DNA from: Azolla caroliniana | Taxonomy: Eukaryota > Plantae > Polypodiophyta | Direction of reading: 5' to 3' | NCBI GenBank assembly: GCA_043228905.1 | Contig: JBHGNT010000006.1 | Coordinates: forward strand, 22,196,001-22,260,000 | Length of the DNA stretch: 64,000 bases | In this document: positions 901-43,421 of the stretch, in pieces | Layout: the number at the start of each line of letters is the position of its first letter | Numbering within the stretch: position 1 is the first letter of the stretch | Notes under the pieces: generated by a model | Database searches by the model: none | Told to the model about the DNA's origin: nothing | Seen by the model: the letters and a program-made list of their open reading frames with translations, nothing else | Translations under genes and position numbers: made by a program

Positions 901-3900
901 TTATATCCCCAATTCAGGAACCTGGAGACAATAAAGATTGTTATCTCTACACCCTATGAAAATCCTGCCATCTAGCATCACTGGTGAAGAAAACACATCC
1001 CCTGGCAATCTTAAAGCAGCAACATGTTCACAAGCCTTAAATTTCATATCTACATTGATTTCAGTTGAAGGCACAACGATTTTTTGGAAATTTGCTTCAT
1101 CCACTGCCTTGTGCTCCTCAACAGAGTGAGTCCTTAGACCTCCATAAACTTTCAGTACATGCATTTGTCCCAATGAGCCACAAACAACAACTAATCGAAA
1201 GCTATGGACAACACAGCCATTGTGTTCTGTTAAAGTTAAGTCAAGGCCCTCATCTACGAAGGCTGCAGATGTGATAGGCTCACCTACATGATGTTTCCAT
1301 AAGCATGTACCACTAGATACATTTAGAGAGTAAACCCAACCATCCCTACAGCAGACTAAAACTTGTGATGGTAGAGCTGACGAGATACATGCCCCAGCAA
1401 AGATTGGTCCCAACGTCTTATATTGCCACGCAAGCAAACCAGTTGGTGTTAAAGCCACCACAAAACCATTCACCAAAGTACATATGACATATCCAAGATC
1501 AGTATCAATAATAGGTGACCCAAATATAGGAGCACCACTTTGATATGTCCAACAGATGTGTGGAGAATTCAGTTCAGATGTTATTGCAATAACAGATCCT
1601 CCTGTTGTTGCAATATATGCTAACCTTCTACTTGAGTCATGAACTGGAGCTGCAAATATACTTTCCTTGCAGTCATGCTCCCATACACGAGACTGGTTTA
1701 CCGCATCGAGTATGTAGACCTTGTGATCATGAGAGCCGCACCAAATAAGACCTTTCAGAATGTCCATAGTCGGCTGGCACTTTACCTCAGCGTTGGTTTG
1801 GAATTTCCACCTCAGCATCCCATTTTCACAGTCAAAGAAATATAGAAAACCATCATAGCAACCCACCATTACTTGGGTTAAATCCAATGTAATGCCAGCA
1901 GACGACTCTACTCTCCCTCCTAATACACTTTCCCAAATCAATGAACCACTGCAAGCATCAATGCATACAAAATTATGTGCATGTGAACCAATGAACAAGT
2001 GACACTTATGCTTTGATACTAGCAGTAGTGGTGATGCATCAATGCAAGCTTTTAGCTGCACAGTCCACACAATAGTTAAACTGGATAAGCTCCTTGCTAA
2101 TGAGCATGGTGCTGAATGAACGGGGACTTTACAAACCCTACTCTTCATAACAGTCTTATGAGAGATAGCATGTACATTACATCTTAATAATACCAAAGGT
2201 TCTGTAACCTGTATATATGGCCATCTATGACCAAGATCAATATCAACATCTACATTGCTAGAATTTAGGTGATCTGTAATCTGCATAGGTGGAATAATTG
2301 GTGAGGAAACCATTTTCAAGCGTTTATGCTTTCCTGGGTTGACTGTGGCAGAAAACAAACTACCTTCTTTCTGAGTTTTCAAAACAGATTCTAGTGCTAA
2401 TGCAGAACTATAATGGTACAAAACTTGCATGTCTATGCCGAGAATGTAAGCCACATGAGCAGCAGATACAGATGTTCCACCTAGAGAGAAAAAATTATCA
2501 TGAACTGAAATATTATCCATCTTCAAAACTCGTTCAAAGACATGTTTAATATGAATAGATATTGGGTTTATTTCTTCAATATTAGGAGATTCAGCCAAAG
2601 GCATATTCAATGTAATAATTGAATTTGAAAGAGCTTGATAATCCACTTTACCAGAAACCAGCAACGGCAAAGAACCAAGAAATTGAAAGCAGTGAGGAAT
2701 GGCTGCCAATGGCAATCTCTCACCCAGCCAACTTCTAAGATTTGCTTCTACTTGAGACAATTCACTCTTGATGACCCCAGAATTTTTACGCTTGCTTGAT
2801 ATGTTTGTCTCTTTATTCGATTCAATAACAATGTGGGCAATCATGTTGCAATCCAAATTAATCCTCTCTTCAAAGGTCACAGCTGCTTGAGCGACAAGAG
2901 GATGCATCTGCAGAGCATTTTCAATTTCTTCGAGTACGACTTTATGTCCATTCATCTTTACAGTCCTGTCTTTCCTCCCTAAATATAGAAGAATCCCACT
3001 CGTAAGCTTCTTTACGTAGTCGCCAGTTTTGAAGAATTGCATATTCTTGTATTCAGGACCATCTACACATTCCATAAAGTTTTCCTTTGTTTTGTAACTG
3101 TCCTTGTAATATCCTGATGCAACCAGAATACCACCTACCCACAACTCTCCCTCATTTTGATTGTTTTCATTGGATGATATTTCGAAAAAACAACCAGGAA
3201 TAGGTTTCCCTATTGGCACAGATGGATACGCCCAATCACTCTCTATTGCCCCACACTCAAAAAAGAAACAATCACCAGAAACCTCAGTACTTCCATATAA
3301 ATTGAGAATCAATGTACCAGGTAAAATCGACCTTATTCTTTCAAGAAGCCAATGCATAAGAACTTCACCACTTAGCAAAACAATACGCAAAGAGTGTTGT
3401 TCCCTGTTATTCGATATTCGACTTTGTAGAACAGGAAGAACAGCTCGCATCCAAGATGGCACAGTAGTGAGTCTCGATACTTTATATGCTTCCAAGAAAT
3501 GCAGAAGTCCTAAAGGGTTCTTAAATATGTCTTCTGGAGGTGGCACGATGATAAGCGAGCTTCCGAGAAGAGGTCCAAACAATTCTGTTAAATGGTCAAT
3601 GAACGCAATTGAAGTTTTGAATATGGCTACATCATTTGGTCCAAATGGATACTCACGTTGCATCCAACAAAGCCGATGCATGAGTCCAACTTCAGTCCCA
3701 CAGACACCCTTGGGTTTTGTGGTTGTTCCAGATGTGTACATGATGTAACAGTGAGTCCGAGTCCAGGATGGCGCACAATGACAGAAACAAGGGCATACCT
3801 CATTGTCAATACGTCTACTGCAGTATTGGAGGAAAAATACGTGAGTTTAGTGTGATTTTAGTTTTTGCAACATTCAAAACATACCTTTAAATCATGTAAC

Positions 3901-5136
3901 TAAAAGTTTGCGACAACCTTCAAATTTGAAATTGAAGTGACAGATATATCTTTAAGTTCTGAAATTGAAGGCATAAATATTCCAAATCTTAGCTAGTATT
4001 ATACTGTAAACATAAAGGTTAAATTTTTTAATAGCTCCAAATTTTCAACTTGAAGGGATAACACAATGATATCTTCCATCCTTTAGTTCTAAACTTATGA
4101 AAATGCTCCAAATATTGAAATTTTCGCAAATAAATAATCTCAAAATGCTGTAGATAAAGGCTCCCCACCTTTTGGAACAATTAGCATCACCCATGTCGTT
4201 GGACGAGGACTTGATGTCGAGGATAGATTCCCAATCAATGTGTGGAAAGGGAGGTTTAACAGTATCTTCGACTGAACTTGAAGATAGCTCTGGGGGTTGT
4301 TCACATGATAGATCAACCCATAAGAAGGGAACTTCAACACTACCTTCAGAGGAACTCGAAGATATCTTTAGCGGTTGTTCACATGCTAGATCAACATGTG
4401 AAAACAGAACCTTCACAGTAGATTCATAGGAATTTGAAGATATTTCCATAGGTTGTTCACGTGCCAATACGAGACAAGTATCTGAATCGATGATCACATC
4501 AGCCAATCTCTGAGATGGCCAAAAAGGATCCAATGGAACAAATGCAAATCCACATTGAAGAACTGCAAGCACTGCCACTACATACTCTACAGATGGACCC
4601 ATAAAGAGGCCCACATTCCTAGCAAGTTCTGTGTTGCTCTCCGATCGAGATGTTGAGGAAGACGGAGACATGGTGCTTTCTTGATGATGGGGATGGTGTG
4701 GCAATGCTTTTCGTAGGCGTGCCGCTAGTCTATTCACCAGTGTGAGAAGGTTTGAGTATGTGAAACATTCATCTCCAGGATTGACTTGAACATCTCGTCT
4801 GGATGTCTGATTTGGTCTAGAGATCGCAACACTGCATCCTTCTTCTTCTTCTTCTTCTTCTTCTTGTTTTCCGCTGTCTCCTTCTTCATCTTCATCATCT
4901 TCATCATCATCATCTTCATCATCATCATCTTCTTCTTCTTCTTCTTCTTCTTCTTCTTCTTCTTCATTCAATGATTCTTCCCTTTTGTCCAGAGGTCTTA
5001 TGTTTCTCTGCAAATGGGGAGAGGAAGCTCTGAGGAGGGCGAGGTGGCAGGGGTGGCGATGGGCCACGCGTGCAAAAGAGCAATAAAGGCAATGGCCTTC
5101 TTCTTCTCCAACAACATCTTCTTCAGAACAGAGCAT
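901..5136 (-). CDS. AAE19: Acyl-activating enzyme 19 / AASDH(ACSF4)-like protein (adenylation + thiolation + PQQ-like beta-propeller); exons 4169-5136 and 901-3817, ~1294 aa
   Basis: A-domain motifs YIMYTSGTTTKPKG, NLYGSTE, FKTGD, GRKDRTVKMNG, SGKVD. Ppant motif DNFFSLGGTS. C-terminal PQQ-type repeats ending FSSPVMLDGRIFIGCRDNNLYCL. A GT..AG intron at 3818-4168 joins the two ORFs in frame (AG|T = Ser). Confidence 0.9.
4839..4966 (-). repeat. Coding (GAA)n/(GAT)n microsatellite encoding a poly-Glu/Asp tract in AAE19
   Basis: (ttc)n/(atc)n on the + strand; translates as EEEEEEEEEEEEDDDDEDDDDEDDEDEEG...EEEEEEEE. Confidence 0.9.
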
Positions 5137-5224
5137 AGCTATCTGTCTGTGTCTGTCACTCTGGACCCACACGATCACAGAACAGAGGCCAAGTCTGTGC
5201 TTGAGCAATAAAATAGCAGGGGAT

Positions 5225-5266
5225 GAAACCCTAAACAATCAAAATGGAAGATGATGAAACCCTAAA
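5225..5266. promoter_or_regulatory. Two telo-box motifs (AAACCCTAA) upstream of the AAE19 start
   Basis: gaaaccctaaa occurs twice ~90-130 bp upstream of the ATG. Telo-boxes are typical near the TSS of plant housekeeping genes. Confidence 0.55.
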
Positions 5267-8492: not shown

Positions 8493-9065
8493 TTAGAAGG
8501 TATGGTGGAATACACCTTGATTCATGGCACGCACAAATGCAAAGCATGCTACAACATAGACAAGAAAAAGGAGGAGAAGGATGACAAGGCTAATAATGGA
8601 AACGGTCCCCCAATCATGCTTGAAGTTTAGGAGAGAATTTACATTGCAATCACTAGCTGACAACAAAGTTGAAATTGTCGAATCATGAGCGGTGATCAAG
8701 GGGGAGGATTGCAAAGCATTGACTTGGATGAGATCCTGAAATCCATGGCTTTTGAGGAGGAAAGCAAAGGTGGTGAAAATGATGAGGAGAAGGATTATGA
8801 GAGTGAGAAGGGCAATGTAGAGCCAAATGAGGCCAAGGATTCTACGACGGGCACCAGTTAAGCCGATAAATGAGATAACAAACATGATGATGCCGATGGA
8901 GATGATAAGCCATTGTATGTGAGAGGAGCAATGGTAGCCACGATGGGCAATCCAAATGCCAACACCAAGAACAACCAATGAGAGCAATAAGGTTAGAAAG
9001 TTGATGAGGATGAGGATCCTTATGCTTAGAGAGGGGCGCCTAGTATGATCTGGTCTTCCTAACAT
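8493..9065 (-). CDS. Tetraspanin-like protein, single exon, with a strongly shortened large extracellular loop
   Basis: Four hydrophobic segments and plant TET motifs (LINFLTLLLS, GIWI, C..IQW, FVISFIGLTGA, IWLY, DWGTVSII...VYVVACFAF). First ATG at 9065. Confidence 0.75.
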   Translation of the reverse strand: MLGRPDHTRRPSLSIRILILINFLTLLLSLVVLGVGIWIAHRGYHCSSHIQWLIISIGIIMFVISFIGLTGARRRILGLIWLYIALLTLIILLLIIFTTFAFLLKSHGFQDLIQVNALQSSPLITAHDSTISTLLSASDCNVNSLLNFKHDWGTVSIISLVILLLLFLVYVVACFAFVRAMNQGVFHHTF

Positions 9066-10211
9066 CTTTTTGAATGGAGATTTTTGGCTACTCTCTTTCA
9101 AGGGAAATTTGATTTTTGATGCATAAAACTACCCCTTCATCCCTTATACTTTCTCTCGCAGACACATAGACACACACATGCACGTAAAGTGTATGCTATG
9201 CCAACCCATTTTATTCCTTGCACTCCTTTCTCTCTCTCGAATTTCCCTTGCTTGTGTCTAAGTTATGCTAGACTTCAATGTCACACTTTTGTCACACACA
9301 CACTAGTATAGAGAGAGTCCCATAGAGAATTAAATTAAGTCTTGGTGTCAAATTTATGTGAATATATTGATGTGTGTCATATAGACCCCTATAGAATTAA
9401 ATCAAGTGTTGGTTTCAAATCATATGTATCCATATTTATATGAATATGCAGATTTCCAATTTTTGTGACTCATGTTTTGTTGTAGTACGTGGTATACATA
9501 TGTACATATTGGTAAGAATATGTTTATTGACACTTTTAAATTGTATGTAAAAAGAACACTTGTTTCATGGCAATTGAAGACTCTAACATACCTTGTAGGT
9601 AGAAATCTAAGATGATTTTTTTGTGTGTTGTGTGTTGCACATATGTAATTATGTGTGTATACCAATTCGAATGAGTGAGGATAACATATATTTTAAGAGT
9701 GGTTCTTATTGTGAGCCTTGAGGACATCAAAGACTTTAAATTGAGCATAACATTATTAAAGATAAACTCAAAATTAATTTGAAACTATGCAGTCTTAATA
9801 TTTGTAGATGTTTGGGCAAGATTTGTTAATTTTCACTATAACGAAGTTATTGTTTCATAAAAATACATGTTGAAACATTTTACAAAGTACAATGTGCCAA
9901 TGAAATATAAATCCTATTAATTGTGCATATGTGGCCAACAAGCGGATCTACATACTTATCCAATATATCAATTCTGGGATACATTCTTGGCTAAATTGCA
10001 AATATGAGACATTTTTTTTATTGGGAGATACCATTGTATCCCTTAAGAATGGTCACAAGTGATGAAAGGGATATATGATGAAGAAAATATGTTTCTATTT
10101 TTCATGGTACTAAGATTTAGTGTGACATATTTGAGGATATTTCTACAAAGTTTTTTATTATGAAATTACCAAATTGATGAAAGGAATCCATTCGAAAAGG
10201 CATACAACCAA

Positions 10212-10918
10212 TTAAGCAACGAAGCCAAATACAAATGCCGTGACTAGAGCAACGAGAGGAGCAAAGATATTATTGATGGAAGAACTATGAGCAAAGTTGG
10301 GAACATAAGTTGTGGTATGGGGAGGAGGAAGAAAGATAACAGGTGAGGTGGGAATGTTGTTGTTGTTAGGTGAGGTGGGAATATTGTTGTTGTTATTGTT
10401 ATTATTGTTAATGTTGGTCGTGGGTGCATCTAAGACATTGACAACAAGGCGCAATCCTTGAGAACATTGGTCAGCATATCCAGATATGAAATAGAATGTT
10501 TGTGCAGAGGTAAGGGTAATGGCCATGTCACCCTCCCCACCATCAGAAGCAAGAGGACTATCGCTAGCACAATCATTATACCCAACTTCTGTCACAAGGA
10601 GAACGCTACTTTGTCCATAAGTATAGGGAAAATCTAGGGAAAACAAGGAACCATGTTATTCTTTCCACAATAATAGAACCATTTAAAGTAAAAACATTGA
10701 ACATTGTTAGAAATGAGTACAATCAATGAAACTGCCTTACATAATGTATCACCCACATAGAAGGTGTATTGGGATGCCCATGCTTGCAAATCAGTGCCAG
10801 GAGACCATCCAGCAGGGCCACCTACTGTATATGATGTTGCATGAATACCATCAAGCTTCAAAATAATCGCCACAATGAACATTGCTAACATCATGAGAGA
10901 ATAATGTCTTTGCGCCAT
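10212..10918 (-). CDS. Phytocyanin / early nodulin-like (ENODL) protein, probably GPI-anchored; exons 10741-10918 and 10212-10633
   Basis: Signal peptide, YTVGGPAGW, WASQYTFYVGDTL|YFPY, YNDC, YFISGYADQCSQGLRL, Pro/Thr/Asn-rich linker, hydrophobic C-terminus. Phase-1 GT..AG intron. Confidence 0.88.
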
Positions 10919-12084
10919 CGTTATTTGTAATAGATTGTGAAAAATGCTAATCTCGGTTTCTTATCAATAAGATTACCCACTGTTTGCTAGATAAAAACAA
11001 AGATGATCAAATGGTAGATTCAATGCCCTTACAAGCCAATCTCATTGATGTTTCGACTTGTGTTTTTATCCCTTACATGCTCTTTGTTGGTCTTAAATAC
11101 ACATGATCATCGAGACCTCATTTAGTTATTATAGTATTAAATATACTTGGCCTCAATATACATTCCTTCTTATTTTATTGTACGGTCATATAATATTCCT
11201 TTCATAGTCCCATTTGTATCTACTCCCATGTTGCATCCCACACTTTATGAACTCTTATCCTTCCTTGAAAGTTCAATGCTTGATACATTCTAAGACTTTT
11301 ATTGCCAAAGATACTCTACAAGTCAATTTGTTGTTATGTCTCTAAGAATCCCTTTGGACTTAGCCTTTCAAAATGAGTGTAGCAAGTTGCAACACGTTTA
11401 TCAATTTAATATTCATAGTCAGAATATTTTATTGTTCCACACTCTAGTTTATATACCACATTTCTTGCCACTCCCAATAGGTAATCCTTAATATAGATCT
11501 AGCTTTAGTTTGGCAAAGAGTTAAGGTGTTGCACTTTCTAAATTCATCGATTTTCAAATGCCCCAATATGTAAAATAAACTAACATAATAGACGATTAGA
11601 AAGGATGAAACCAACATTATAATTTGTGTTGTGTTTCTCACACCTTTAGCTAATCTAATTTGAAAACAATACATACATGCACTATCTTGGAGCATAGAAC
11701 TAATGGTCTCTGGGATTATTGTATACAAATATGTCTATAGACCTATATAAACATGTTTTTGAGTGGATTGATAGTCCATTCATCATAGGTGGTTGTTTAC
11801 AAACCAATGATTGGCAACCGACAAATTGGAAATACTTGTTTTGCATATGCATAGTGGTTGCATAAAAATGTTCAATTGTGCTATAATTGGCTAAGATTCC
11901 CTCCAGAGTTGATGTTTTGATTTTATGCCATTATTGTTTTTCTTATTACAACTTTGGATGCAACTTTCATGGTTATGGTCCAAGACCATACCAAGCAAGA
12001 TTCACTTCCCCACATAACTATTTCAAGAATGAAAATTTTAGCGTGAGATTGAATCAGCAATGAGAACATGTAAAAAGTGAACTA

Positions 12085-12669
12085 GCATATTGATTCATGA
12101 GAGAATTAACACACAAACATAGTTTGGGAATTCGTAAGAATGTCTTACAAATTACATGAATCAAACATTGTGTTAAATTTAACAATTGTTTACCATTTTT
12201 GGCATAAATTTATTTTTTATTACAAGAACTATTACACCTTGTTTTTGACAAATATTAATGTGGTGCTTTTTAATTTGATTTTCAGTTGTATGCGCCCTTA
12301 TATATTCTCAACAGACCATTCCACTTCATCTAACCCCACTTTCCTTCCTCATGTTAACAATTTAATGCCTACTTTTGCATATTGATTCATGAGAGAATTA
12401 ACACACAAACATAGTTTGGGAATTCGTAAGAATGTCTTACAAATTACATGAATCAAACATTGTGTTAAATTTAACAATTGTTTACCATTTTTGGCATAAA
12501 TTTATTTTTTATTACAAGAACTATTACACCTTGTTTTTGACAAATATTAATGTGGTGCTTTTTAATTTGATTTTCAGTTGTATGCGCCCTTATATATTCT
12601 CAACAGACCATTCCACTTCATCTAACCCCACTTTCCTTCCTCATGTTAACAATTTAATGCCTACTTTTG
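12085..12669. repeat. Apparently identical 292-bp tandem duplication
   Basis: gcatattgattcatgagag...atgcctacttttg repeats at offset 292; ORFs at 12140 and 12432 translate identically. Confidence 0.9.
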
Positions 12670-13786
12670 ACACATTGCAAAATTCCACTTCTCATTAGAT
12701 TCTCATACAACTCAATTGCGAACCATTTGCTAAGAATCTCTTCACATTGTTATGTGGTGGAGATCATCACATTATCTTGTGAATTGTTCTAAAAGCCATT
12801 AATATTCTGCAGCATCCTCACTTTATGTGTATTCAAATCAATGCTCTTGTAATCCTAACTAGAAATGCATATGCCAAAAAAACCCATATTTGATCTCACT
12901 TTCCCAAGGTTGGCATAGCATTTCTGAAATCAATCTATTTTTAAAATACTCAAATTCTTAACATAGTTGGAGTCTAGTAATAACAAATATATATACAAGG
13001 GTGTTATAAAAAAATCTTTGGCCAGATGACTCCCTGATATTTACAAAATATCTTCTAAAATCCATTCAAGTACAAATGTATTTATAAAATTTAAAATTGA
13101 TTGAAACTTAATTATATATTTTCAATATGATGCAAGTTATAGTCTTATAGGATCAATCTCAAACGCCTTATAATATCAATTTCAAATGCTGCTTACTACC
13201 ATAGACTCATTATGCGAGACATTTGAAATTATTGATTAGAAATGATCAAGATTTGATTCTTGAGTGACAATATCAATCAAATCTAACAGCCCTGTGTTAG
13301 CACTACATCAATGTATCACTATAATTTCATACGACAAAATAGTCGTATCAATCAAAGGTAAGGCTATTGCTTCTATTGCAACATCCCTTGAGCTGATATA
13401 ATGCAACTTCAATGCGATAAGATTTCAATGTTAATTTGATTATTAGCATTTGGAATCACTTCTTGAAGATACACCATCTCATACTTCGAATTTTATGATT
13501 GCCATAATGGAAGTGGATCAAACAATGGTTGCTTTGGTTAACAGCATTTATCATCACGCAACCATCTTATTTAAAAAATTGCAGGCGATATCTTCCCTTG
13601 GAAGACAGGAAGTTGTCTCAAACTTTTGGCCCTATGCCTAAAGTGTTCACTGACTCCCTCCTACCACAAGTATTATATCAATACCCAATTTGATAAACAA
13701 TTTGTGCTTGTAGTCATGAGGATGACTCTGACATCAAAGACGATCTCTAAGATAACCCTATTGACGGTAAACTTGATTGGTAAACC

Positions 13787-13972
13787 TTAATCAATGCCTC
13801 CGATATAAGTCTCGTCAGTTATGAGAAACATATCACAACCAGAAATTGGAGTATAGTATTTGTGAGGCAGTAGAAGGCCGACCTTCATCAACACCAAAAG
13901 AAGACCAGGAGAAACATTATGACGAACACTATTGCAATGTATCAAGCTTCTCCTAGAATTTGCGTCAAATAC
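13787..13972 (-). pseudogene. BET1: Third BET1 terminal exon copy C, frameshifted relative to B
   Basis: Intact acceptor and VFDANSRRSLI, then a ~5-nt deletion versus B. The ancestral TM frame (IVFVIMFLLVFFWC*) ends at 13888; the shifted frame runs to 13787. Confidence 0.65.
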
Positions 13973-14105
13973 CTGATACCAAAAGAAAAATGCATGCACT
14001 TCATTTAGTTTACTGTAAGAATTGCATCCTTGCCATTACATTACAGACAGATAAGGTGAAATTTTAGTACTCCAGTAATTTCAAGTATAAGTGAAAGCTT
14101 GACCT

Positions 14106-14198
14106 TTATCTACGCCAAATGAAGGCTAGGAAAAATAATATCACAAACACTAGTACCAATGGTAGTATCAAGCTTCTCTTCGAATTTGCCTCAAATAC
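14106..14198 (-). CDS. BET1: Alternative BET1 terminal exon B (VFEANSKRSLILPLVLVFVILFFLAFIWRR*)
   Basis: Intact acceptor (ttttcttttgtatcag|GTA TTT GAG), phase 0, open to TAA, encodes a TM helix; paralogous to exon A. Confidence 0.7.
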   Translation of the reverse strand, partial: VFEANSKRSLILPLVLVFVILFFLAFIWRR

Positions 14199-14302
14199 CT
14201 GATACAAAAGAAAAATGCAGATCCTTTATTTAGTCTAAAGTAACAACAGCATCTTTGCCATTTCAATACTAACAGAGAAATTTTAGTTGCTAAAAACACT
14301 CA

Positions 14303-17300
14303 TCAATTGGTCAGGAAATAGACCAGAAATATTGTGATGAACATCGCAACCAACATAAGCCAGCTTTTTCCTCTTTTTTTCTCAAAAACCTGACATAAAA
14401 GAAAATTGATCTCTGGATCAATGGAAAAGCAAAATGATTGTACAACACATTGATTCATCTCTCTAAGCTACATAAAAAAGATAGGTTGCTAATTATATAA
14501 GCCTAGAGTCAAATTTGCAGCTAAATGTTTCAATTTAAGAATTAACATTTGCTAGCTAATGCGAAGTAGTGTTTTTTTGGTATTAATTAATTAATTAATT
14601 AATTAATTAAGAATTAAGATATTGGGAACCAAGAGGGCCCCAAAGTCATTCATGAAGTAAATAATTGACAACATAGGAAGGTCATTACCTTCTTAAACCT
14701 CCCTACAGTTACTGCTAGCATGCCTCTTGATGTATCCATGTGGCTTCCCTGACATGAAGAAAGAAAAGAACTCTTCTATTATGTTATGGTACTTCTTCAT
14801 TCATGAAATATGACAACATAAAATGATGTTAGGGCATAATTTGTGACTGTTTTCTATATGTATATGACCATTTAAAATGGCATGAGGACATATTAGATTA
14901 CGTCCTATTCTGTTAGAGTTTACATATATTCTCATATGAAAATATAGGGAGTTTTTCTGAAATACCCCTGAAGTCTTAATATTTCCCTTATGATCCAGAG
15001 ATTACATTATGACCACATCATTTCTCCAAATGCCTTTGGTCAACGCCCTCAATCACACTCACTCCTTTCTCTCTTTTTCAGTATCCACTCTCTCTCTCTT
15101 TCCCTTCCTTTTTAGTGTAGTAGTATAGTATCCATACACGCTGCTGCTCTGCCTGCTATCTGCTCATGCAACTTCCATGTTCTCAAGCCTCCCCATTGCT
15201 CCTGCTCTGAATGCTACCTGCTCACTCCTGCCTGCCACTTGCTCCTCAATCCCCCCCACTTTACTTTTTTACACTATCTACTCTTATCTGCTCCATATCC
15301 ATTCCAACACCAACCTAACACATGACAACCACCACACTGGAACAAAACAATGGATGGACATTTAGAAAACCTCAATGAAACATTTTAATTTTTGACTATG
15401 TGATGTGTGTGTGACAGTGTGTGGTTGTGTGGGTGTTCAAAGACACTGATGGCCCCCATTAAAGTTGGGTGATGCCAGCTGTGTTGAAATGAACCAGGGT
15501 CCTGGATCAAGATGGGCGATACCAGTGATCATACTCTCAAAATGGCAGTCTCAGATAAAAACTCAGGCTTCCTTACGAAAATTCATGGTTACCAGGGTCC
15601 TTGAGTTCTAAGTTTGATTTCTTTATGAAACTTGAAATGTCATTTGTTTTCTACTTCTCTATCTCCTTTTACATTTCTTGGTGGAGCTTTAATATGATAC
15701 TTCAATTATCATGCCCACCTAACAAGTCACCACATTTATCTCAAATTACCTCATATTTTGAGCACGTGAGAACTGATATTCACCTTCTACTATGTTTTCA
15801 TAGCATACCTTCATTTTTTTCATACTTGGGTGATGATGCCATGATGCTACATCAACACCTAGCTTGTGCAAGTGAGGTGAAAGAAGTGTTAAGGATATCC
15901 ATGAGTTAAGGCTCATGGAGGTAGTAAAATGCAAATGGATACGTTCTGGCATTTTTACCTTGTATCACAGACGGCATCGAGGGTCAACATTTGCAACATA
16001 ATCTTCCAACTTTGAGATTTTAGCAACTTGCCATTTCATCCTTAGTGCCTCGACTGATCTATTCTCGATGATCACATCCGTCATAGCAAAGTTGAGAGCT
16101 TCAATAGATCTTTTACTCCCCATCTTTTAAACCATTTCATAATGTCAAGGACCCACTAGATGAGAGGATTTGCTCTTCTTAGTTTTTCAAACCTTGCATC
16201 TATGTTTCAAGCTTATTTTTGGCAATCTACGATTGGGCATATTATTGCCTTCTCTGATATATTTGTATACTCTTTGCATGGCTCACATCGACATACGCCT
16301 AGCACTTGTTTCTAATAGCATGATAGGATAGGATCTTTTAATTTTCTCTATTTCATTCCATGCACTAAATGAGAAAGTGTCACCCCATACTTCCACTTCA
16401 CAGATCAACACATAGAGAGAGAGAGAGAGAAGGTTGATTAAAGGAATTAATGAGAATTTGGGGGTATTTCAAATCTTTTCCCAAATTTATATGAGTGTAT
16501 ATCATGAAAGCTAGCATCCTATGTATTTCATCTATCATCATATAATGATGTTGGGCCATGCCACAGAAATTAACATTCTACTCTGCAAATTGTATTTCTT
16601 CATGTACATGAGCAACTGTATTCCGTCATGTACATGAGCAACGGAAATTGTATTTCTTCATGTACATGAGCAACTGTATTCCTTCATGTATATCTGTGAT
16701 CATGTATATCTGTCGTAATCTGTGATTGTATTTCTTCATGTATATTAGCTTAACATTCCATGAAATCGAGCACAAAATTCTCAATTATACTTGTTTTGTA
16801 TAAGAACTTCAAACCTATTGGAACATACCATCAACTCTAGCATTTTATTCTGTGATTGTACTTCTTCATGTATATCTGTCGTAATCTGTACACGAGAAGA
16901 TAGATTTGTAGCTTCTAGTTAAGAAAAAACAAATGCGAAAAAGGGATAAAATCTAACCTCTAATTCATGTATATGCATACCCTCTTCAGGATATTAACTT
17001 TATCTTGTAAACCATCCACAGCCATATCATTATCATGTTCTGAAATCTCTAGAGCTGAATAGGATGAAGAAGCTCGATTGACACCTTCTTCAATGCCATC
17101 AAAGAGAGAGGACCGTGATCCACGATAATCTCTGCAAAGAAAAAGTAAGAAATTATTGCTAACAAATTCTTATGTCTGCAAAATGAAGAAAAATTTATTC
17201 TTATAATCTCTGACAAAAACAGAAAAAGATATGTAATGATATAGGCAAAAAACATACACAACACTACTTCTTTCTGCAAAAACCAGAATATCTGGCCAGA

Positions 17301-18360
17301 AACATACAAGTTCTTGGGATAATCTCAGCTATAAAGCATTGTCATAATCCAATAACAAAAGAATAAACTGATTCTTGTGATATAATTTCTTCAGAAACTG
17401 ACCTTGCTCTTGAGAGATGATCTCAGCAAACAAAACAGAAAATTCCTAGAAATAATCTTTGATTAAAATAGAACATTTCTTGAAATGATCTCTGGGAAAA
17501 TAGACAAATTATTGCAATAATATCAACAAATAACATACTAATTCTAGTGAAAATTTCACCAGGAAAAACAGAATGCAATATCTATAAAAACAGACAAATT
17601 GTTGCAGTAACCTTCGCAAATAGCAGAAACTTCAAGAAAAAATAATAGAAAATAGATATTGTGTTAATCCTCATGGAAAATAATAGTTATTCTTGATAAC
17701 TGCAGGAAAACTAGTATTAAAACACCTTCTATTAATCTTCCGAAAAATAGAAAAACCATTGCAGTACTGCCAGTAGAAATAGACAAGCTCTAGAGATATT
17801 ATAAGCAGAAACAGGAAACCTGGTCCAATAAGCTCAAAAAAAACAGAGTTTTCTGCCATCATCTTTGTAAAAAAAAGACAGATTCTTAGCATAATCTTCG
17901 ATGGAAAAACAGAGAAAATCTTGCTATAATCTTTCAGTAAAAGCAGATCAGTGTTTGCCACGATCTCAGCAAAAACCAGGAAAATAAATATTGCAATAAA
18001 CTCTGTCAATTTCTAGCGATAATTGCAACATTTGGCAGGAAAATCAGAGAAAATATTTCCGTAACTCCTGCAAAACAGAAAAAAGATTCTTGCCAAAATA
18101 ATTGCATCTGTGCAAGAAGCAAGGAAAAAGCAGGCGGAATTATTGAAAAAAGGACAGACAAATTCCATTGCGAAGATCTAACCTAAAACAGGCGCATTCA
18201 TCACGTAGGGGATAAAAAGGAGATGGAAATTTTCGACATCAGGAAGCGAAGACAATGGATACGGATCAAAAAAAGGCAAGAAACAGAAGAAAGTATCTGA
18301 TGTTAAAGAAGAAGAAGAAGAAGAAGAAGAAGAAGAGAAGAAATACCTGCGCGAGTTCAT
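14303..18360 (-). CDS. BET1: Bet1-like Qc-SNARE (BET11/BS14-like); exons 18347-18360, 16981-17131, 16829-16885, 14689-14748, terminal exon A 14303-14389
   Basis: Spliced translation MNSRRDYRGSRSSLFDGIEEGVNRASSSYSALEISEHDNDMAVDGLQDKVNILKR|ITTDIHEEVQSQNKMLELM|GSHMDTSRGMLAVTVGRFKK|VFEKKRGKSWLMLVAMFITIFLVYFLTN* matches plant BET11 as I recall it. All introns are GT..AG and frame-consistent. Confidence 0.9.
14947..16482. mobile_element. Possible degenerate Mutator-like element in BET1 intron 3
   Basis: Imperfect inverted termini gggagtttttctgaaatacccctg... / ...gggggtatttcaaatcttttccc. The 9-bp TSD matches only 6/9. Confidence 0.35.
16590..16750. repeat. Scrambled short copies of BET1 exon 3 sequence in intron 3
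   Basis: tgtgattgtatttcttcatgtatat and catgtatatctgtcgtaatctgt match exon 3 and its acceptor (16851-16888); interleaved with tcatgtacatgagcaac repeats. Confidence 0.75.
17120..18175. repeat. Degenerate ~30-35 bp tandem array filling BET1 intron 1
   Basis: Recurrent ttcttgcNataatctctgcaaaaaacagaNaaa-like units. Confidence 0.75.
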
Positions 18361-21300
18361 CGAAACGGGTGACAGACAACGATTCTGCTCTGCGATGACT
18401 GGCTCTGTCTCTGCAAACTGTCACTGAATCGCTCGCTCGCCTCAGGCAGCCTCTGGCAGAGTTGTTTTTCTTTATTCGCGACGATGCCCCTCCCGTTTTA
18501 GCTATTTACGAAACTGCCCCTGCGTTTCTCTTCGTTTTTATTATTATTATCATCTCTTCTCTTCTGTTAGAGACATCCACACTAAACTGATACACCTCCA
18601 AACCATCATTGCCATCGAGCATGAAATAAATCGATGCCTACTATGTTCCAATTCCACCGAACAAAAGAAACACAATCCTTTAGTAATGTTTCTTTTTTTT
18701 AATGCGTCCCCTAATGGTAAAGCTCCAACCATAACTCTCCAAATAAATATCTTGGCTCGTAGCATCAATCGAGAACACCAAACTGCCTTGATCACATGAA
18801 ACCACCAAGTAATGGGCTTATGAAAACCCCATATCTTTATAACCCTTTCTTCCAACCACTTATGTTTGTCAATCAACTTGTGATAAGCCACATTCGTTGA
18901 GATCATTGTCAATCTCTTATTTCCAACAAACCTCCAATCAAGCTCTTGAGATCGCCCATCTAAATCAAGAATTGGCTCATGCGAAGATAGTATTTGTTGC
19001 AACTTATCCCAAATAAAGTTATAACATTTTGGAATACGAAATGTTGATCTTCTTGTTCGAAAAGCCATTAATCTTCTTTGTGAAACCAACAAAGCATCCT
19101 TAACTGTTACCAAACCCAATCTAGTCATCCGATTAAATTGAAGGTTAAGAATTTGTTTACATTCCCACCTCAACAACCTTGATGTTGCCAAAACCTCCAT
19201 TTGTAATGAATTGGAACATCCCCTTTCTTGTGGGGGATGTCATTCCACAAAATCCAACATACTTTGCCAAGATGTCAACAAATGATTAACTATCATAGAT
19301 CCTGTACATTTGAAATCCCTGTCAGAATTAATTACATTCCACCAATTCGCTTCAACCTTCATGTTTCCAAGCTTTATTCCGTTCTTCTCTATAAAGTATG
19401 CCACCATTTCTGTCCAAGGTTGTACACCTTCAAACATGAACCGAATGAAAGTAAATCGACGAGCCACCATATGCTCTTATAGATTCAATATTCATGTCAC
19501 ACCAAGACGTTTCAGAGTACAAACATGATCCCATGCCAACCATGACAAGGCACTTTTCCCTTTTCTTTTCCATAACAACATTCGCATCGAACGTGACAAC
19601 ATTTCGAAGAGCTTTCTTTGACCATGGGAGCAAAGGAAGATAATAAGATACCATAGAGACCATAATCGATTGGACCACCTTAAGTCGTACATGAAAAGGC
19701 CAAAATTGAGACCTCTTATACATAAACTTATCCTCCAACCTTTTGGATACCCACTCAATAAGTTTCACATGAGAAATTTCCACCCCAATTGGATATCCAA
19801 GATGACGACAAATCATACCACAATGTACTATCCTTCTTGACCACCCCAACCCTAACACATCTTGTTCTGTACATGAAATGAGGACAAATTTATGTATATT
19901 AATTCTCAACCCTAAAGCATTTGAAAACAATTCCCACACATCTCTTGTTTGACTAATATTTTCCCGATTAGGTGCCAAAAACATAATATGGTCATCTGCG
20001 AGAGCTTGAACAATACATGGCTTCCCTGATGGCAACCTTAGTCAAAGCAATTCTTCCTCCATAGCCATATTGTGTAACTTAACAAGAATAGGATGTGTCA
20101 CAATAGTGAATAGTAAAGGACTTACCGGGCATCCTTGTCTAACTGACCTCCGAATAGAAATCAGTTGTGTTACTCCTCCATTAAACATCACATGTGAAAC
20201 CGAACCCTCCCCTAATGTATATATCAACTTAGACATACGATCACCAAAACCCATATGAGACATCAATTGATTTATAAATGACCAATCCACATTATCATAG
20301 GCTTTCTCGATATCCAATTGTAGCAACATTAATTCTTGTTTAGATTCCTTTGCATAGTCAATTGTCATTTGAACATTTAAAATATTATGTAAAATGTCTC
20401 TTTTTGCTAAAAACCCATATTGAGCATTATGAATAATAGAAGGTAAAACCTTATGCAACCTATTGGCCATCACTTTTGCAAAAATCTTGTACATTCCCCC
20501 CATCAATGAAATAGGCCTCCATTGAGCAAAGGAAGATGGAGAAGGCACCTTCGGCAAAAGCTTGATCAAACCAATTTTCCAAGAATGAGGCATTTCCCCT
20601 GATGTCCACACCTTCTAAAATAAAACCGTAAAAAGCCCCTTTAACTTAATCACATATTTCTTAAAGAGTTCATGTGTTAATCTATCCCACCCAAGACTCT
20701 TATCATTAGCGAGATGTGACACGACATGTTCCACCTCATCCTCTGAAATATTAGCATCTAATGATTGTGCCACATCATGCGATACATGATTTTTCACTCC
20801 ATTAAAAAATACATCTCTATCCTTTTTAACATTTTCATCGATACACACGTGTACATCCAACAATTGTGTATAATATTCTATGCATTTCTTCACAATTTCT
20901 TGAGGATCGGAACACATGATACCATTTTCCTCTAACCTTACCACATTATGTCGTGCATGTGATTCATGAAGGTCATGAAAAAACTTATGTGATTGACAAT
21001 TAGCATCATCCACTTCTTGTCTTAGACGATGTAGTCTAACATGTTGATAATTTTTTGCAATTTGGTCATGCATCGCAGAAATTAATACCTCTTGATATCC
21101 TATAAACTCTACATCCGTTGGCCAATAAGTTAACAATGAGTTGCATTTATCAAGCAAATTAACTAGGAGACTTAATTTCTTTCTCCTTTTAAAAGCATGG
21201 TGAATTGCATAATATCTAGTTAACCTCTGAACATTTGCAACAAATACTTCCCACACTTCATACCCATCAAATTGAACATGATAGGCAAATGCATCAATCA

Positions 21301-21537
21301 ATTGACACATATAGGCATGGAAGACCTCATGATCAAAAAATGATGAATTAAAAATCAATGGTAGTTTTCCTAAAAACTCATAAAAACCTCTAATTGAGTG
21401 GTGATTGAACTCAAAAATTAATGGGAAATGATTTGATATAATTGACCCATAAGACACTGAAATATCCAAAATCTCTAGTAAAAAACCTTCAGTATGCATT
21501 ACATACATTCGATCCAACCTACTCGAATTATCCTTAT

Positions 21538-21671
21538 TGTCAGGAACTCTATTAAGGCAGAGAAGGAATTAGTACTAAAAGAAGGATTAGTACTATTGTT
21601 GGGGAATAGTACTAAGACAGAGAAGGATTAGTACTATGAGAGGTGTCGAACTTTTGAGAGAAGGAATGAGT

Positions 21672-21721
<50 letters not shown>

Positions 21722-22011
21722 TGATGCGAAAGATATATGTATTATATGAAGGAAGATATACAACAGTAGTTAGAAGGCTTAAGACTGGCGTTGAACCGAT
21801 TTGGTTCGAACTAATGCCTTGCGCCTCCTTTTATAGTGTCTTCAGGAATACTCCTGAAGTTTCTAGAATGTTCCAGAGAAATCTGGAATATACATCAATT
21901 TCCCAATAAAACCTAAATGAAAATAATATCCTTCAAATTACAATTCATAACCTAATGGTAAAGTCTCGACCCGTGTAACAAAAGGTTATGGGTTCGAGTC
22001 TAGTTATGACA
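21538..22011 (-). repeat. 3' LTR of chromovirus (474 bp)
   Basis: tgtcaggaac...gttatgaca. Confidence 0.95.
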
Positions 22012-25000
22012 CTATCCCCCCTTTAAAACGACGAGTTCCACGAGTCGTTTTGGATTGAGGACCCGGTTTCTCGGGATATCGTCGATGGAAGTCTTCTAGA
22101 AGAGCACGAGCATTGGTCACATTCTCGATCGGTTCCCAAGTACGCTCGCTGGGACTATATCCTAGCCAATCGACTAGATAGTAGAGCTTGTTGCGAACAA
22201 TCTTGGAATCGAGGATGGCAGCGACCTCATACTCAGGTCCATCTTCGAGCTCGATAGGAGGTGGTGGTTGTATAGTACGTCCTGGGATAGTGCTCTCGTG
22301 ATAGGGTTCGAGGAGAGAACTATGAAACACCGGATGTATCCGAAGTTGCGGAGGTAGCTCGAGACGAAAAGCGACATCATTAATCTTCCCGATAATACGG
22401 AAAGGACCTAATCGCCGATAATCCAACTTCTCACATGGGCGAGTAGTCTTGATGTGTCGTCGTAGCAGCCACACCCGATCTCCAATGTTAAAACTGGATG
22501 GAAGTCGATGACGATCTGCGTAGTCCTTGTGTGATTGTTGAGCTTGCTGGAGTTGAGTAGATAAATCCGCTTGTATCTTGCGTAACCGCTCCAAACGATC
22601 CTCCGCGCAAGGATTTGTGGACACTTCTGGGGTTTCAAGGACACACCACCGGGGATGATATCCCGTATAAGCGTAGAATGGCGTGACTTTAGTCGATGCA
22701 TGGATAGTGTTATTATAGGCAAATTCGGCGAACTGAAGAATATCTGCCCAGTCATTCTGATGATAGTTGAGAAAGCACCGCAGATACTGCTCCAGTGTTT
22801 GATTTGTTCGTTCGGCTTGACCGTCGGTTTGTGGGTGGTAGCCGGAGGAGAGGTTACAAGTGACCTTCAGCATTTTAAAAAGGTGCTTCCAGAATTTTGA
22901 CACAAACTGGGGTCCACGATCGCTGATGATATTATCAGGGAGTCCATGATGCCGACATACTTCCCGCATGACAATTTCGGCGGTGTCTTCACTAGATATT
23001 TCTTTAGTACATGGTAAGAAATGAGCCATCTTCGTATATCGATCCACCACTGTGAGAATCGCACTGAATCCCTTAGAGACTGGAAGATCTGTAATGAAGT
23101 CAAGAGCAATGGATTGCCATGGCTGGCTTGGAATTGGTAATGGTTCTAATAAACCATATGGATGATGTCTTGGCATTTTCGCTCTGCAGCATGTATCGCA
23201 AGTCCGAACAAAATCTTCGACAAATTGTCGCATACGGGGCCACCAGAATGATCGTTGTACTAAATCTAATGTTTTAGTACTACCAAAATGTCCTGCTGTA
23301 TATGTGTCATGGCAATTTTGTACTACTCGAAGGCGGCAAGAACCATTAGGAACATACAAAAGTTCTTTAAAGAAGAGTAATCCATCACAGTATTTGAATT
23401 GCCGATAATCCGTACCTGGTGATTGTGATTGTGAACATGACGCTCGAGAGGGGTCAATTTGTGCTAGTATAGCTTGGGCGAAAGCGTCAGTCTTCAAGTC
23501 CTCACGTATAGTATTGGTAATGTCGGAATCCACGGGCATGTCAAAGACTTGTGCTGCTTGCAGTCGTGCTGGACCCAAGATTACTTGCTTCTGGTTATCG
23601 AAAGCTGGCTCACCGGGACGTGGTGTTAGATACGAACGCCGTGATAATGCATCTGCCTTCCCTTGGTGCTTCCCCGGACGATATGTAATTTTGAAGTCGA
23701 AGCGTGTGAGGAAGTGGGCCCACCGAGCTTGACGTCGATTCAGTACACGAGCATCTTGAAAGTAGGCAAGGTTCTTGTGGTCACTGAATACAGTGACCTG
23801 ATGAGGAGATCCCTCCAGGAAATGCCTCCATTGCATAAAAGAATCAACTATTGCTAATAGCTCTTTATCATGAATTTCGTAGTTGATTTCGGCGGCGTCA
23901 AACTTACGGGAGTGGAAAGCCACAGGATGTAGCTTCTCGTCGTTACCCTGTTGTGACAGAATGCTCCCCAATGCGAAATCCGATGCGTCAGCTTCGATAA
24001 TGAATGGTTTTTCCGGATCCACATGACCTAAAATTGGAGCTGATGTAAACGCCTTCTTAAGACTCTCGAAAGCCATGTCCGTCTCTTTAGACCAAATGAA
24101 TGATTGTCCCTTCCTGGTGAGCTGTGTGAGAGGCAGCACAATTTTTGAGTAATTTTGTATGAACTTCCGGTAAAAATTTGCAAAGCCTAGGAAGCATTGC
24201 ACATCCCGCACCGAACGCGGAGTGTGCCATTCTATCACCGTTTTCACCTTGGCTGGGTCCATAGATATGCCTTCTGAGGAGATGACATAGCCGAGAAATT
24301 CCACTTGGTTGCACCCGAAACTACATTTCTCTAACTTTGCATACAGACCATGTTCTCGAAGTCGTTTTAGTACTAATAGTACATGAGAATCATGTTCTTC
24401 TTGGGTCTTTGAATAAACCAGTAGATCATCCAAATAGATGATCAAAAAATCATCCAAGAGATCTCGAAATATATCATTCGCCATGTGCTGGAAGACTGCC
24501 GGCGCATTAGTGAGTCCGAACGGCATGACCGTATACTCGAAGTGCCCATATCTGGTGCGAAACGCGGTCTTCCATTCATCTCCTGGTCGGATCCGTACGA
24601 GGTTATAGGCTCCTCGTAAGTCGATCTTCGTGAAGAACCTGGCACCGTTGATCCGTTCTAAAAGACTTGAGATAAGGGGAAGAGCATACCTATTTCTTAC
24701 TGTGACCTTATTCAAGCCACGGTAATCTACAACGAGTCGAAGCGAGCCATCTTTTTTCTTGACGAAGAAAATGGGTGCACCGGCTGGAGATTTCGAATGC
24801 CGAATGAAACCGTTCTCCAAATTCTCCTCTATATAGGCTCGGAGGACTTCTAGCTCGGTTGGTGACAAATTGTAGATCGGCCCCCATGGCGGCTCTTTTC
24901 CCGGTTGTAAGTCGATGGCGCAATCGTACGGCCGATGATGAGGAAGTGTGTTGGCTTGTACTTTATCGAACACATCAGCATACTGACGATACTTCTCGGG

Positions 25001-25600
25001 AAGTTGAACGGTGGACTCCTCTTTGGTGGTGCTGGAGGGTTGTACTGATATTGCGAAGAGAAACATTTCCTCCTTGCGCTCTTCCTCACGCAACTGATGT
25101 AGCGAAATGGTTGCAACCTTCTGGGTAGATCCTTGGGTTTGTCGCAACCGGATTTCCCTTGTCCTCCAATCTATGTCTGGGTTATGTAACTCGAACCATG
25201 GTAATCCTAAAACTATGGGATGTTCTGGAATACTAATAATATTAAATGATACTACACATGTTAAGTTATCTAGGACAATATTAACGGGTTCCGACTCTTC
25301 TATGATATTACCAGAAGCAATGGGACGACCATCAATGACTACTACTGAGGCTGGACATGGGAGCTTTCTGAGAGATATCTGATGAGCTCGGGCAAAATTC
25401 CTATCCATGAAGCAAGAATTAGCTCCGGAATCTAGAAGGGCTAAGGTATGTACTGGAGGGGTACTTTTAGTACTAACTGCTACTTGGGCTACGAACACAT
25501 CACTAACTTGCTTAGAGGGAATGGAACCACTAATGGGCTGCACAGATCTAGGGCTGTCCAACCAAACGGCTCCTATTTTGGCTGGACTTAGTCGTTTAAC
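22004..25600 (-). CDS. pol: Chromovirus Pol (PR-RT-RH-IN-chromodomain), intact, in the -1 frame relative to gag
   Basis: LLDSGA, YLDD, EADASD, HHCC zinc finger, DFITDLP..SDRGPQF..GQAERTN, GPF motif, chromodomain EYEVAAILD...YLVDWLGY...TWEP. Confidence 0.95.
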
Positions 25601-26757
25601 TCTTCTTCTAATTGGCTAAGGACATCAAATTTGTTTGCGAGATTCGGACTATTAGTACTATTAGGACTATTATGACTATGAGGACTATCAGAGATTCCTA
25701 CTGAAATAGACTCGGGTTTAGTATAGTCAGAACTAACAACGACTTGGTTTACCTGCCTTCTTGGTCTATGGGGACAGTTTATCGCGATATGCCCTGGTCC
25801 ACCGCAATAAAGGCATAATCGGTTTGTTCGGCGTCGTTGCTTTTCCTCCTCCGATAGCGGCCCACGACGACGTGTAGTGTCAATTTCCATTGGAGTTGGA
25901 GTACTTACTGGAGGCGCATTATGTGACTCCCTTTGAAAAGGTTTTGCTACCACTGAGGCATAGGTAGGCTCGGATCTTGCCCTCGGCATCTGAAATTATC
26001 GTTCTGAACGTCGCTCGAAGAGGCGGTTGTCACATCTTACCGCTCGACTGATTGCTTCTGTTAATGATTTTGGCTCTTCAGGGAAAGTCAAGAGTAAATC
26101 CTTGACATCGTTGCGTAGACCATAGCGGAACTGCTCCATCAATGCTTGATCATCCCAGGGGATATCGGCGGCGAGTAGGCGGAAATCTGCAGCATATGCG
26201 GAGGCTGGACGGTCACCTTGGCGTAATCGCCGGATTTTGTTGATTGCAGTCCTTATGCTGTCAGTATCTCCAAAACATGCTTTAAACTCACTTATGAATT
26301 CTTCAAAATTATTTAGTACTGGAGATTCCTTTTCTAGTAGCGGAGCGAACCATGCTAATGCTGAGCCATTTAACAACGTGCCTACTAAACCCACTCGTGA
26401 TGCATTGGTGGGATATCGGGACGGATGCATTTGAATAACTAACCGTACCTGGTTAAGAAACCCTCTAAACTGCGATCGCGTTCCATCGAACTTCGTGGGA
26501 AGGCCAATCTTGGGTTCTTTATGAATTCCTTGTGCTCCGTGCCCTTGTTGTTGCATTGCTACGATGGTTGCTTCGAGTTGTTGCACGCGTAACGCAAGTT
26601 CCCCATGCTGTTGTTGCGTTTGCTGCTTTTCTAAGGAAATTTGCTGAAGATCCCCCAACAAGCGTTGATTTTCTTGTTCCAAAGCATGAAACTTCTCTTT
26701 CAAGCATTGAAATTCCGAGAAAACGGATTGATACTCTTCAGCGCTAACGGTGGCCAT
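25588..26757 (-). pseudogene. gag: Chromovirus Gag with one in-frame TAA at 25996-25998
   Basis: ORFs 25996-26757 and 25588-25989 share a frame. Capsid motifs (KFDG, LRQG), PMEID, and [14 protein letters not shown] knuckle. Confidence 0.88.
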
Positions 26758-26858
26758 GGGATGAAGGAAAAGGGAAATAAGAGACTAGTAGGAAAGGAGG
26801 GAGACAGAAGGAAGAGGGAGAGAAAAGACCAGACAGGCACCCGAAAATCGGTTCAAAC

Positions 26859-26992
26859 TGTCAGGAACTCTATTAAGGCAGAGAAGGAATTAGTACTAAA
26901 AGAAGGATTAGTACTATTGTTGGGGAATAGTACTAAGACAGAGAAGGATTAGTACTATGAGAGGTGTCGAACTTTTGAGAGAAGGAATGAGT

Positions 26993-27038
<46 letters not shown>

Positions 27039-42971: not shown

Positions 42972-43289
42972 TGTTGAGAGATCAAGCTCAACTTAGTTTA
43001 GTTAGTTAGTCAACCATGCTACTTCGTAGTTACCTAGATAGAATCTAGTTAGAAGTGTTGACTATAACGCCTTAAATAGGACCTTGTACTTAAGTGGGAT
43101 ATTCTAGATCCTCCACTCCTAAGTACATTTAATATAGGACTTACACCTTAGTACCTATATTCTACTCACACATGTGCACCTTTGCACATGAGATGTATAT
43201 ATACCTCATTGTGGGTATTTTTGTATTGGATGATGATAATGTTAATTTAATATAGTTACTCATCCCCCATCTTGTGTTGTTCATAACTG

Positions 43290-43339
<50 letters not shown>

Positions 43340-43421
43340 TCTCACACACATACACACATATAACATAATCTTCCACTTAACTTAATCACATAATTAGGTA
43401 CTAATTATCTAATTATTAACA
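42972..43421 (+). mobile_element. Solo LTR inserted in the LINE
   Basis: tgttgagagatcaagctcaac...attaaca; TSD ggccc/agccc (4/5). Confidence 0.75.

Follow-up and report, generated by a model that had tools for sequence, protein, structure and literature searches.

Three tandem copies of an anchor exon in a BET1-like SNARE gene of Azolla caroliniana, spliced alternatively and in series in close relatives

Can a single gene supply one SNARE motif with more than one kind of membrane anchor? This question is raised by a BET1-like gene on the minus strand of the window, as we call the whole stretch of 64,000 nucleotides of Azolla caroliniana DNA analysed here. An earlier note on this DNA had described three tandem, paralogous last exons, referred to below as copies A, B and C, and had proposed that one of them at a time is chosen as the anchor. 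Our analysis confirms that the anchor exon has been copied twice, and contigs from close relatives reveal that the copies are spliced both alternatively and serially. We favour the reading, at a probability of about 0.5, that the gene yields forms ending in A, in B, or in the first part of A (A') joined to B, and that the last of these carries a two-segment anchor, likely a hairpin, which has probably been under selection. The features of the gene are given below in the order of transcription, with X numbers denoting the sequencing runs introduced later.

18360-18347, minus strand: BET1 exon 1, coding part with the start codon; one contig in X6 joins 18348-18401 to exon 2
17131-16981, minus strand: BET1 exon 2, N-terminus and start of the SNARE motif; joint 16885/16981 in X1, X2 and X6
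16885-16829, minus strand: BET1 exon 3, middle of the SNARE motif with the central Gln; joint 14747/16828 in X1, X2 and X6
14748-14689, minus strand: BET1 exon 4, phase-0 end at a GT donor; joined to A (six of six RNA-like runs) and to B (X3)
14389-14303, minus strand: copy A at full length with its stop, giving a single anchor and a 122-aa protein; the spacer behind it is read through unspliced in X2 contig 9 and X3 contig 6
14389-14324, minus strand: A', the first 66 nt (22 codons) of A, up to an internal donor CTG/GTCTAT; joined to B
14323-14199, minus strand: alternative intron of 125 nt that takes out A's last codons and stop; CT..AC ends on the forward strand, joint 14196/14322
14198-14104, coding 14198-14106, minus strand: copy B, an internal exon with its donor 2 nt past the stop; 20-residue hydrophobic run and RR end
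14103-13973, minus strand: 3' UTR intron of 131 nt between B and C; joint 13970/14102 in X1, X2, X3, X4 and X7 (two studies)
13972-13345, minus strand: last exon, made up of the frameshifted copy C (13972-13885) and 3' UTR; poly(A) site near 13345

By sequence homology, the window gene is a BET1-like Qc-SNARE. Its exon 2 matches 87 of 95 candidate proteins, many of them named Bet1-like SNARE 1-1 or 1-2; identity to those named 1-1 is as high as 78%. Exons 1-4 all have GT-AG ends, the SNARE core shares 73-79% identity with those of the paralogues and of fern homologues, and its central Gln and hydrophobic layers align with the fern homologues. At a threshold of 0.001, P0001 and P0007 had no match in Pfam, and the homologue P0007 aligns weakly with the C-terminal motif of SNAP-25 (E 0.2-0.9). 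The fern-like placement of the gene comes from a single protein tree of 15 rows, P0015 among them, in which the window BET1 and both of its paralogues group with Adiantum and Ceratopteris, apart from the angiosperms (100/99). The genome holds three BET1 genes with a common exon layout, the window gene and two ordinary paralogues on C17. The two C17 genes are sisters in the tree (95/96), the window BET1 branch has no firm position, and a test of its orthology to Ceratopteris P0093 gives a p-AU of 0.11, which neither establishes nor rejects that relationship. One of the ordinary paralogues (L013 and L015, G000:C17:1807749-1814640) has an intron of ~6.8 kb ahead of its last exon.

The three copies are built as the earlier note had described them: exon 4 ends in phase 0, each copy lies behind a pyrimidine tract and a TCAG acceptor, the translations agree, and the claimed deletion of ~5 nt in C is found by alignment as a net 5-nt deletion relative to B. 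A degenerate exon-start pattern has three matches in the window, where 0.00 are expected and none of 100 shuffles reaches three; across the 523-Mb genome it has five, namely A, B, C and one in each of the two C17 BET1 genes, at their sole last exon. No duplicated last exon was found in the two paralogues, either at loci L012 and L015-L017 or by the exon-start pattern genome-wide. The triplicated anchor exon is real and is unique to this BET1 gene within the genome. We reject an assembly artefact as the source of the triplication, because 16 of the 88 bases aligned between B and C are different and the same arrangement appears in L020 and X5. We also rejected C as a coding exon used directly behind exon 4, given that its frame continues without a hydrophobic run and that no such joint is among the joints listed.

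The flanks of B and C can still be aligned with each other (none of 300 shuffles reaches their score), whereas the introns flanking A align no better than shuffles, of which 136 and 146 out of 300 reach the score, suggesting that the split between B and C came after that between A and B. Relative to the ordinary tails, the length has changed by one codon each in A and B and by 5 nt in C. Since no indel is listed at the position of C's deletion among the changes in relatives, this deletion appears to be common to the relatives covering C. A's last codons retain the ancestral V-Y-F-L and the position of the stop. A metagenome scan for relatives gave three loci, of which L020 is a near-identical allele and L018 an orthologue of a C17 paralogue; L019, bacterial-looking, was set aside as a chance match. 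This one scan and its three loci gave no distant orthologue of the A-B region.

The evidence on splicing consists of assembled contigs from six RNA-like runs (X1, X2, X3, X4, X6 and X7) of close relatives. These runs carry no RNA record, and their status is taken from GT-AG joints in all six and a poly(A) tail in X4. The analysis covered seven of the eight runs listed, X1 to X7, of which X5 is probably DNA and stands outside the six. Contig depth is not taken as a rank of expression. The joint between exon 4 and A is present in every one of the six runs, while the direct joint between exon 4 and B is present in one, X3, in a contig with a depth of 6.69 and 25 letters on its shorter side, flagged 'between: not known'. 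As X3 also holds the joint to A (depth 19.9), both A and B are spliced to exon 4, as had been supposed, and the finding that the earlier note said would speak against it, an exon 4-A junction alone with B absent or decayed in relatives, is not what the contigs and relatives display. A misplaced A or C contig is an unlikely source of the exon 4-B joint, for all five X3 contigs at 14181 have the B variant and none fits two places. No joint between exon 4 and C was found in X3, X4 or X7 or among the joints listed for X1, X2 and X6.

The in-frame joint of A' to B occurs in X1, X4 and X7, and a loose end with A letters at 14206 in X3 brings it to four of the six runs, all of them from organism A and from one study (P1); in the UTR, organism A and the window differ by ~5%. 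Among the joints listed for X1, X4 and X7, this is the sole A/B form. The joint of B to C is found in five of the six runs and in two studies. Contig 9 of X4 (1374 nt) carries exon 4, A', B, C and a poly(A) tail together, and A', B and C also lie on one contig in X7. Copy C is 3' UTR, and a poly(T) loose end in X4 places a single poly(A) site at 13345, downstream of C. Of the separate poly(A) sites that had been proposed, the contigs reveal this one and none between A and B, although contigs cannot prove absence. In X2 the assembled form is not A'-B but the one that ends at A's stop, with A, B and C on one contig; the unspliced A-B spacer, with A's stop retained, is seen in X2 contig 9 and X3 contig 6. 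X6 is probably of the window's own species, since four records match at 99% or more, and it has the exon 4-A joint and cover in C, with zero cover over the A-B spacer. No change at A's internal donor is among those listed for X2, X3 and X5. Contig 9 of X2 (window 13519-14387) differs from the window once in 452 nt of C and UTR sequence but 11 times in 286 nt of the A-B region, where it resembles organism A; this contig may be a hybrid, or a mosaic assembled from two haplotypes.

These contigs do not agree with three mutually exclusive last exons. The commonest assembled form joins a part of A in frame to the whole of B, and because the copies are joined, the window gene falls outside the mutually exclusive class. 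Neither is B a last exon; it is an internal exon whose donor lies 2 nt past its stop, and the last exon is the non-coding C.

Three proteins with one common SNARE motif are predicted, of 122 aa (A), 124 aa (B) and 146 aa (A'+B), the last of them in frame because A' is 66 nt long. The uncharged, hydrophobic run spans 19 residues in A and 20 in B; in A'+B there are two, of 16 and 20 residues, separated by a 6-residue loop. A single C-terminal anchor is predicted for forms A and B, and two segments for A'+B. Both ordinary paralogues have a 20-residue run followed by R, while copy A, with 19 residues, lacks a basic end and is more basic in its juxtamembrane stretch. Comparison of the tails thus makes B the copy of normal anchor length and A the deviant one, contrary to the contrast drawn in the earlier note, which described B as slightly longer and with a basic tail. 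In A'+B, a basic flank precedes segment 1 and the RR end stands behind segment 2, a charge pattern that would fit a hairpin with both ends in the cytosol. Segment 1 is strongly hydrophobic, with an approximate insertion energy of -2.9, near that of the ordinary anchors; at 16 residues it is short, and perhaps it does not span the membrane but lies on its surface. A protein with A letters was not found in the protein collection by an A open-frame query, a weak search in which 0 of 2 candidates scored.

Does selection act on these exons? Every relative with cover of copy B has it intact, with no indel among the changes listed, and the changes in B comprise at least two synonymous and two hydrophobic-to-hydrophobic ones, with one further change in organism A. 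In X5, A's stop is altered and a second stop follows immediately. Both A and B retain the acceptor, the frame, the hydrophobic run and the stop. We simulated neutral decay from the paralogue exons with assumed indel and substitution rates, counting as survival an intact acceptor, frame and length and an 18-residue uncharged run. Survival was 16% at 0.1, 7% at 0.15, 4% at 0.2 and ~1% at 0.3 changes per site, and the B/C flank score fits ~0.15-0.2 changes per site. Neutral decay is therefore an unlikely explanation of B's persistence, at ~4-7% under the assumed rates. The earlier suggestion that both A and B are under selection draws support from this survival, but not from conservation among close relatives, where coding sequence is not significantly more conserved than UTR (Fisher p 0.40 and 0.05). 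Identity of the window gene's tails to the ordinary tails is 41-64%, against 66-90% among the ordinary tails themselves; such faster change would fit a new role or relaxed selection alike. A comparative study describes plant splice variants as rarely conserved at the protein level (PMC2674458), which lowers the prior for function here.

The favoured reading suggests a simple course of events. The ancestral exon would have had a donor-like sequence at a codon boundary, and because A and C read CTG/GTC at the position of A's internal donor and the paralogues CTT/GTC, this site probably predates the duplication. Duplication would then have put an acceptor 125 nt downstream, making the latent donor usable and providing an in-frame join for free. 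Selection would since have maintained A' and B, whereas C would have lost its frame and retained only its acceptor. In the protein, segment 1 directly behind the intact SNARE motif is predicted to couple zippering to the membrane, and segment 2 to bring the RR end back to the cytosol, where it would serve as a new signal for sorting or retention. With two ordinary paralogues to cover the normal BET1 job, the window gene would be free to take on such a role.

The same two paralogues also permit a plainer account, namely drift in a redundant gene. The joints would be real but automatic by-products of the duplication, the gene could bear any hydrophobic tail, since the work is done by two ordinary BET1 genes, and the isoforms would have no distinct function. 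We regard this as rather unlikely, although much fits it: all that an in-frame join requires is a latent donor between two codons, the form assembled varies by organism (A'-B in X1, X4 and X7, A-stop in X2), the tails evolve faster than the cores, C has decayed, and the conservation tests among relatives are not significant. However, drift does not readily account for an intact SNARE core, nor for A and B that retain acceptor, frame, hydrophobic run and stop next to flanks that no longer align, with length changes of one codon each against 5 nt in C and a simulated neutral survival of 4-7% or less. The model of the earlier note, in which A or B is chosen singly as the anchor and sends the SNARE to different compartments, would reduce A'-B to noise. 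It can point to both joints in X3 (depths 19.9 and 6.69), to the V-Y-F-L and stop position kept in A, and to the second stop that backs the changed one in X5, but we consider it improbable, as A'-B is all that is listed for X1, X4 and X7, the exon 4-B joint is known from one run of six on a short contig, the contigs reveal no poly(A) site between A and B, and the anchor of B is of ordinary length.

Spacers can uncouple a SNARE motif from fusion. A further reading is that the switch tunes the amount of active SNARE, with only B spanning the membrane in A'-B, A' acting as such a spacer of 22 residues and the A-stop form, once its B-C intron is spliced, being degraded by nonsense-mediated decay. 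We think such a regulatory or inhibitory role highly improbable. The 16 residues of segment 1 would suit it, but the strong hydrophobicity of that segment (-2.9) would not. Decay is set off in plants by introns that lie over 50 nt beyond a stop (PMC3711448). A's stop precedes the B-C joint by 199 nt in contig 9 of X2, so the A-stop form may be unstable once this intron is removed, while B's stop, 2 nt from the joint, would escape. Against this, the A-stop form is the assembled form in X2 and thus not scarce there. The X2 contig also has the look of a mosaic and may not represent one molecule.

How does the favoured two-segment form compare with known systems? Arabidopsis BET11 and BET12 resemble the window BET1 in their short N-terminus, SNARE motif and C-terminal anchor. 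They are described as Golgi proteins with one transmembrane domain, and splicing is not mentioned (PMC5430320). Unlike them, the window BET1 has three alternatively spliced copies of its anchor exon and one isoform with two hydrophobic segments. Among the Bet1 tails of the fetched homologues, compared by eye, none has a repeated VFE unit. In angiosperm Bet1-like '1-2' proteins (P0083-P0150), a longer tail extends past YYLIR and annotated isoforms differ there, which suggests that splicing varies the BET1 C-terminus in other lineages as well. Titles and abstract openings, mostly outside subscription journals, revealed no plant BET1 whose anchor exon is duplicated or that carries two anchors; supplements may hold fern isoform annotation.

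The nearest parallel in exon arrangement is KRAS, in which the homologous terminal exons 4A and 4B give one protein alternative membrane-targeting ends (PMC9882654). Both genes have homologous tandem exons behind one donor. In KRAS, however, the anchors are lipid, the choice is mutually exclusive and the arrangement is conserved over 450 My, whereas the window BET1 has transmembrane anchors, copies that can be joined in series and conservation seen among close relatives only. Instead of exactly one copy per mRNA, A', B and C stand together in X4 and X7, and A, B and C in X2. Splicing also changes SNARE ends in animals, as in the Stx3S form without a membrane anchor (10.1101/162958), in VAMP-1B, whose basic end is important for mitochondrial targeting (PMC4592070), and in SNAP25a and SNAP25b, which differ by 9 residues (PMC3104942). 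In these three cases, as in the window BET1, splicing alters the C-terminal end or swaps a short part; they are animal cases, and in none of them is an anchor doubled through two duplicated exons.

In topology, the form predicted for A'+B is that of the hairpin tail anchor of syntaxin 17, whose defining features are two tandem helices and a cationic C-terminal end (PMC11152571). Syntaxin 17 differs from the window BET1 in having a Habc domain, in belonging to another SNARE class and in a basic C-terminal region longer than two residues; the window BET1 has ~40 residues ahead of its SNARE motif, which is not the arrangement of a syntaxin with Habc, and it groups with Bet1. Syntaxin 17 has glycine zippers. 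Both segments of A'+B lack glycine and thus have no counterpart to them, and no evidence ties the window BET1 to autophagy. The window BET1 is at most an analogue of syntaxin 17, not syntaxin 17 itself. That a fern lineage has, through tandem exon duplication, independently evolved a syntaxin-17-like hairpin on a Bet1 Qc-SNARE, in which splicing switches between a one-pass and a two-pass anchor and thereby sends the protein to a different membrane, is a stronger claim that we hold to be unlikely. Swapped terminal exons (KRAS), anchor-changing SNARE splicing (animals) and the two-helix anchor (syntaxin 17) are each already known.

If A'+B is made and works, the gene would be a natural experiment in which one SNARE motif meets three anchors, A, B and both, and a direct test of how a second transmembrane helix affects sorting and fusion, a question for which syntaxin 17 has been the main subject of study until now. 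It would also point to an easy path by which a tail-anchored protein turns into a hairpin membrane protein, through duplication of a last exon that activates a latent in-frame donor. If drift is the answer, the locus is a tidy case of local interest, an exon duplicated within a redundant gene.

Several further observations concern the surroundings of the gene. In the 3' UTR, near 13749, 8 nt that are present in L020, X1, X2, X3, X4, X5 and X7 are absent from the window, a private deletion. A perfect tandem duplication of 292 nt at window 12085-12668 is single-copy in L020, an allele 99.5% identical, which points to a very recent event or an assembly artefact. Broken LINE-like frames at 18550-21568, judged by eye, stop within ~200 nt of BET1 exon 1, and the one frame scanned had no Pfam match. 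A Ty3/gypsy-type retrotransposon occupies 21500-27000, its open frame at 22004-25615 carrying reverse transcriptase, RNase H, integrase and chromo domains, and remnants of Copia-type gag and reverse transcriptase lie at 41000-50000. The neighbouring genes encode a beta-alanine-activating-enzyme-like protein (901-5238), a tetraspanin (8493-9128), a protein with a plastocyanin-like domain (10212-10960) and one with a BTB domain (54763-55221).
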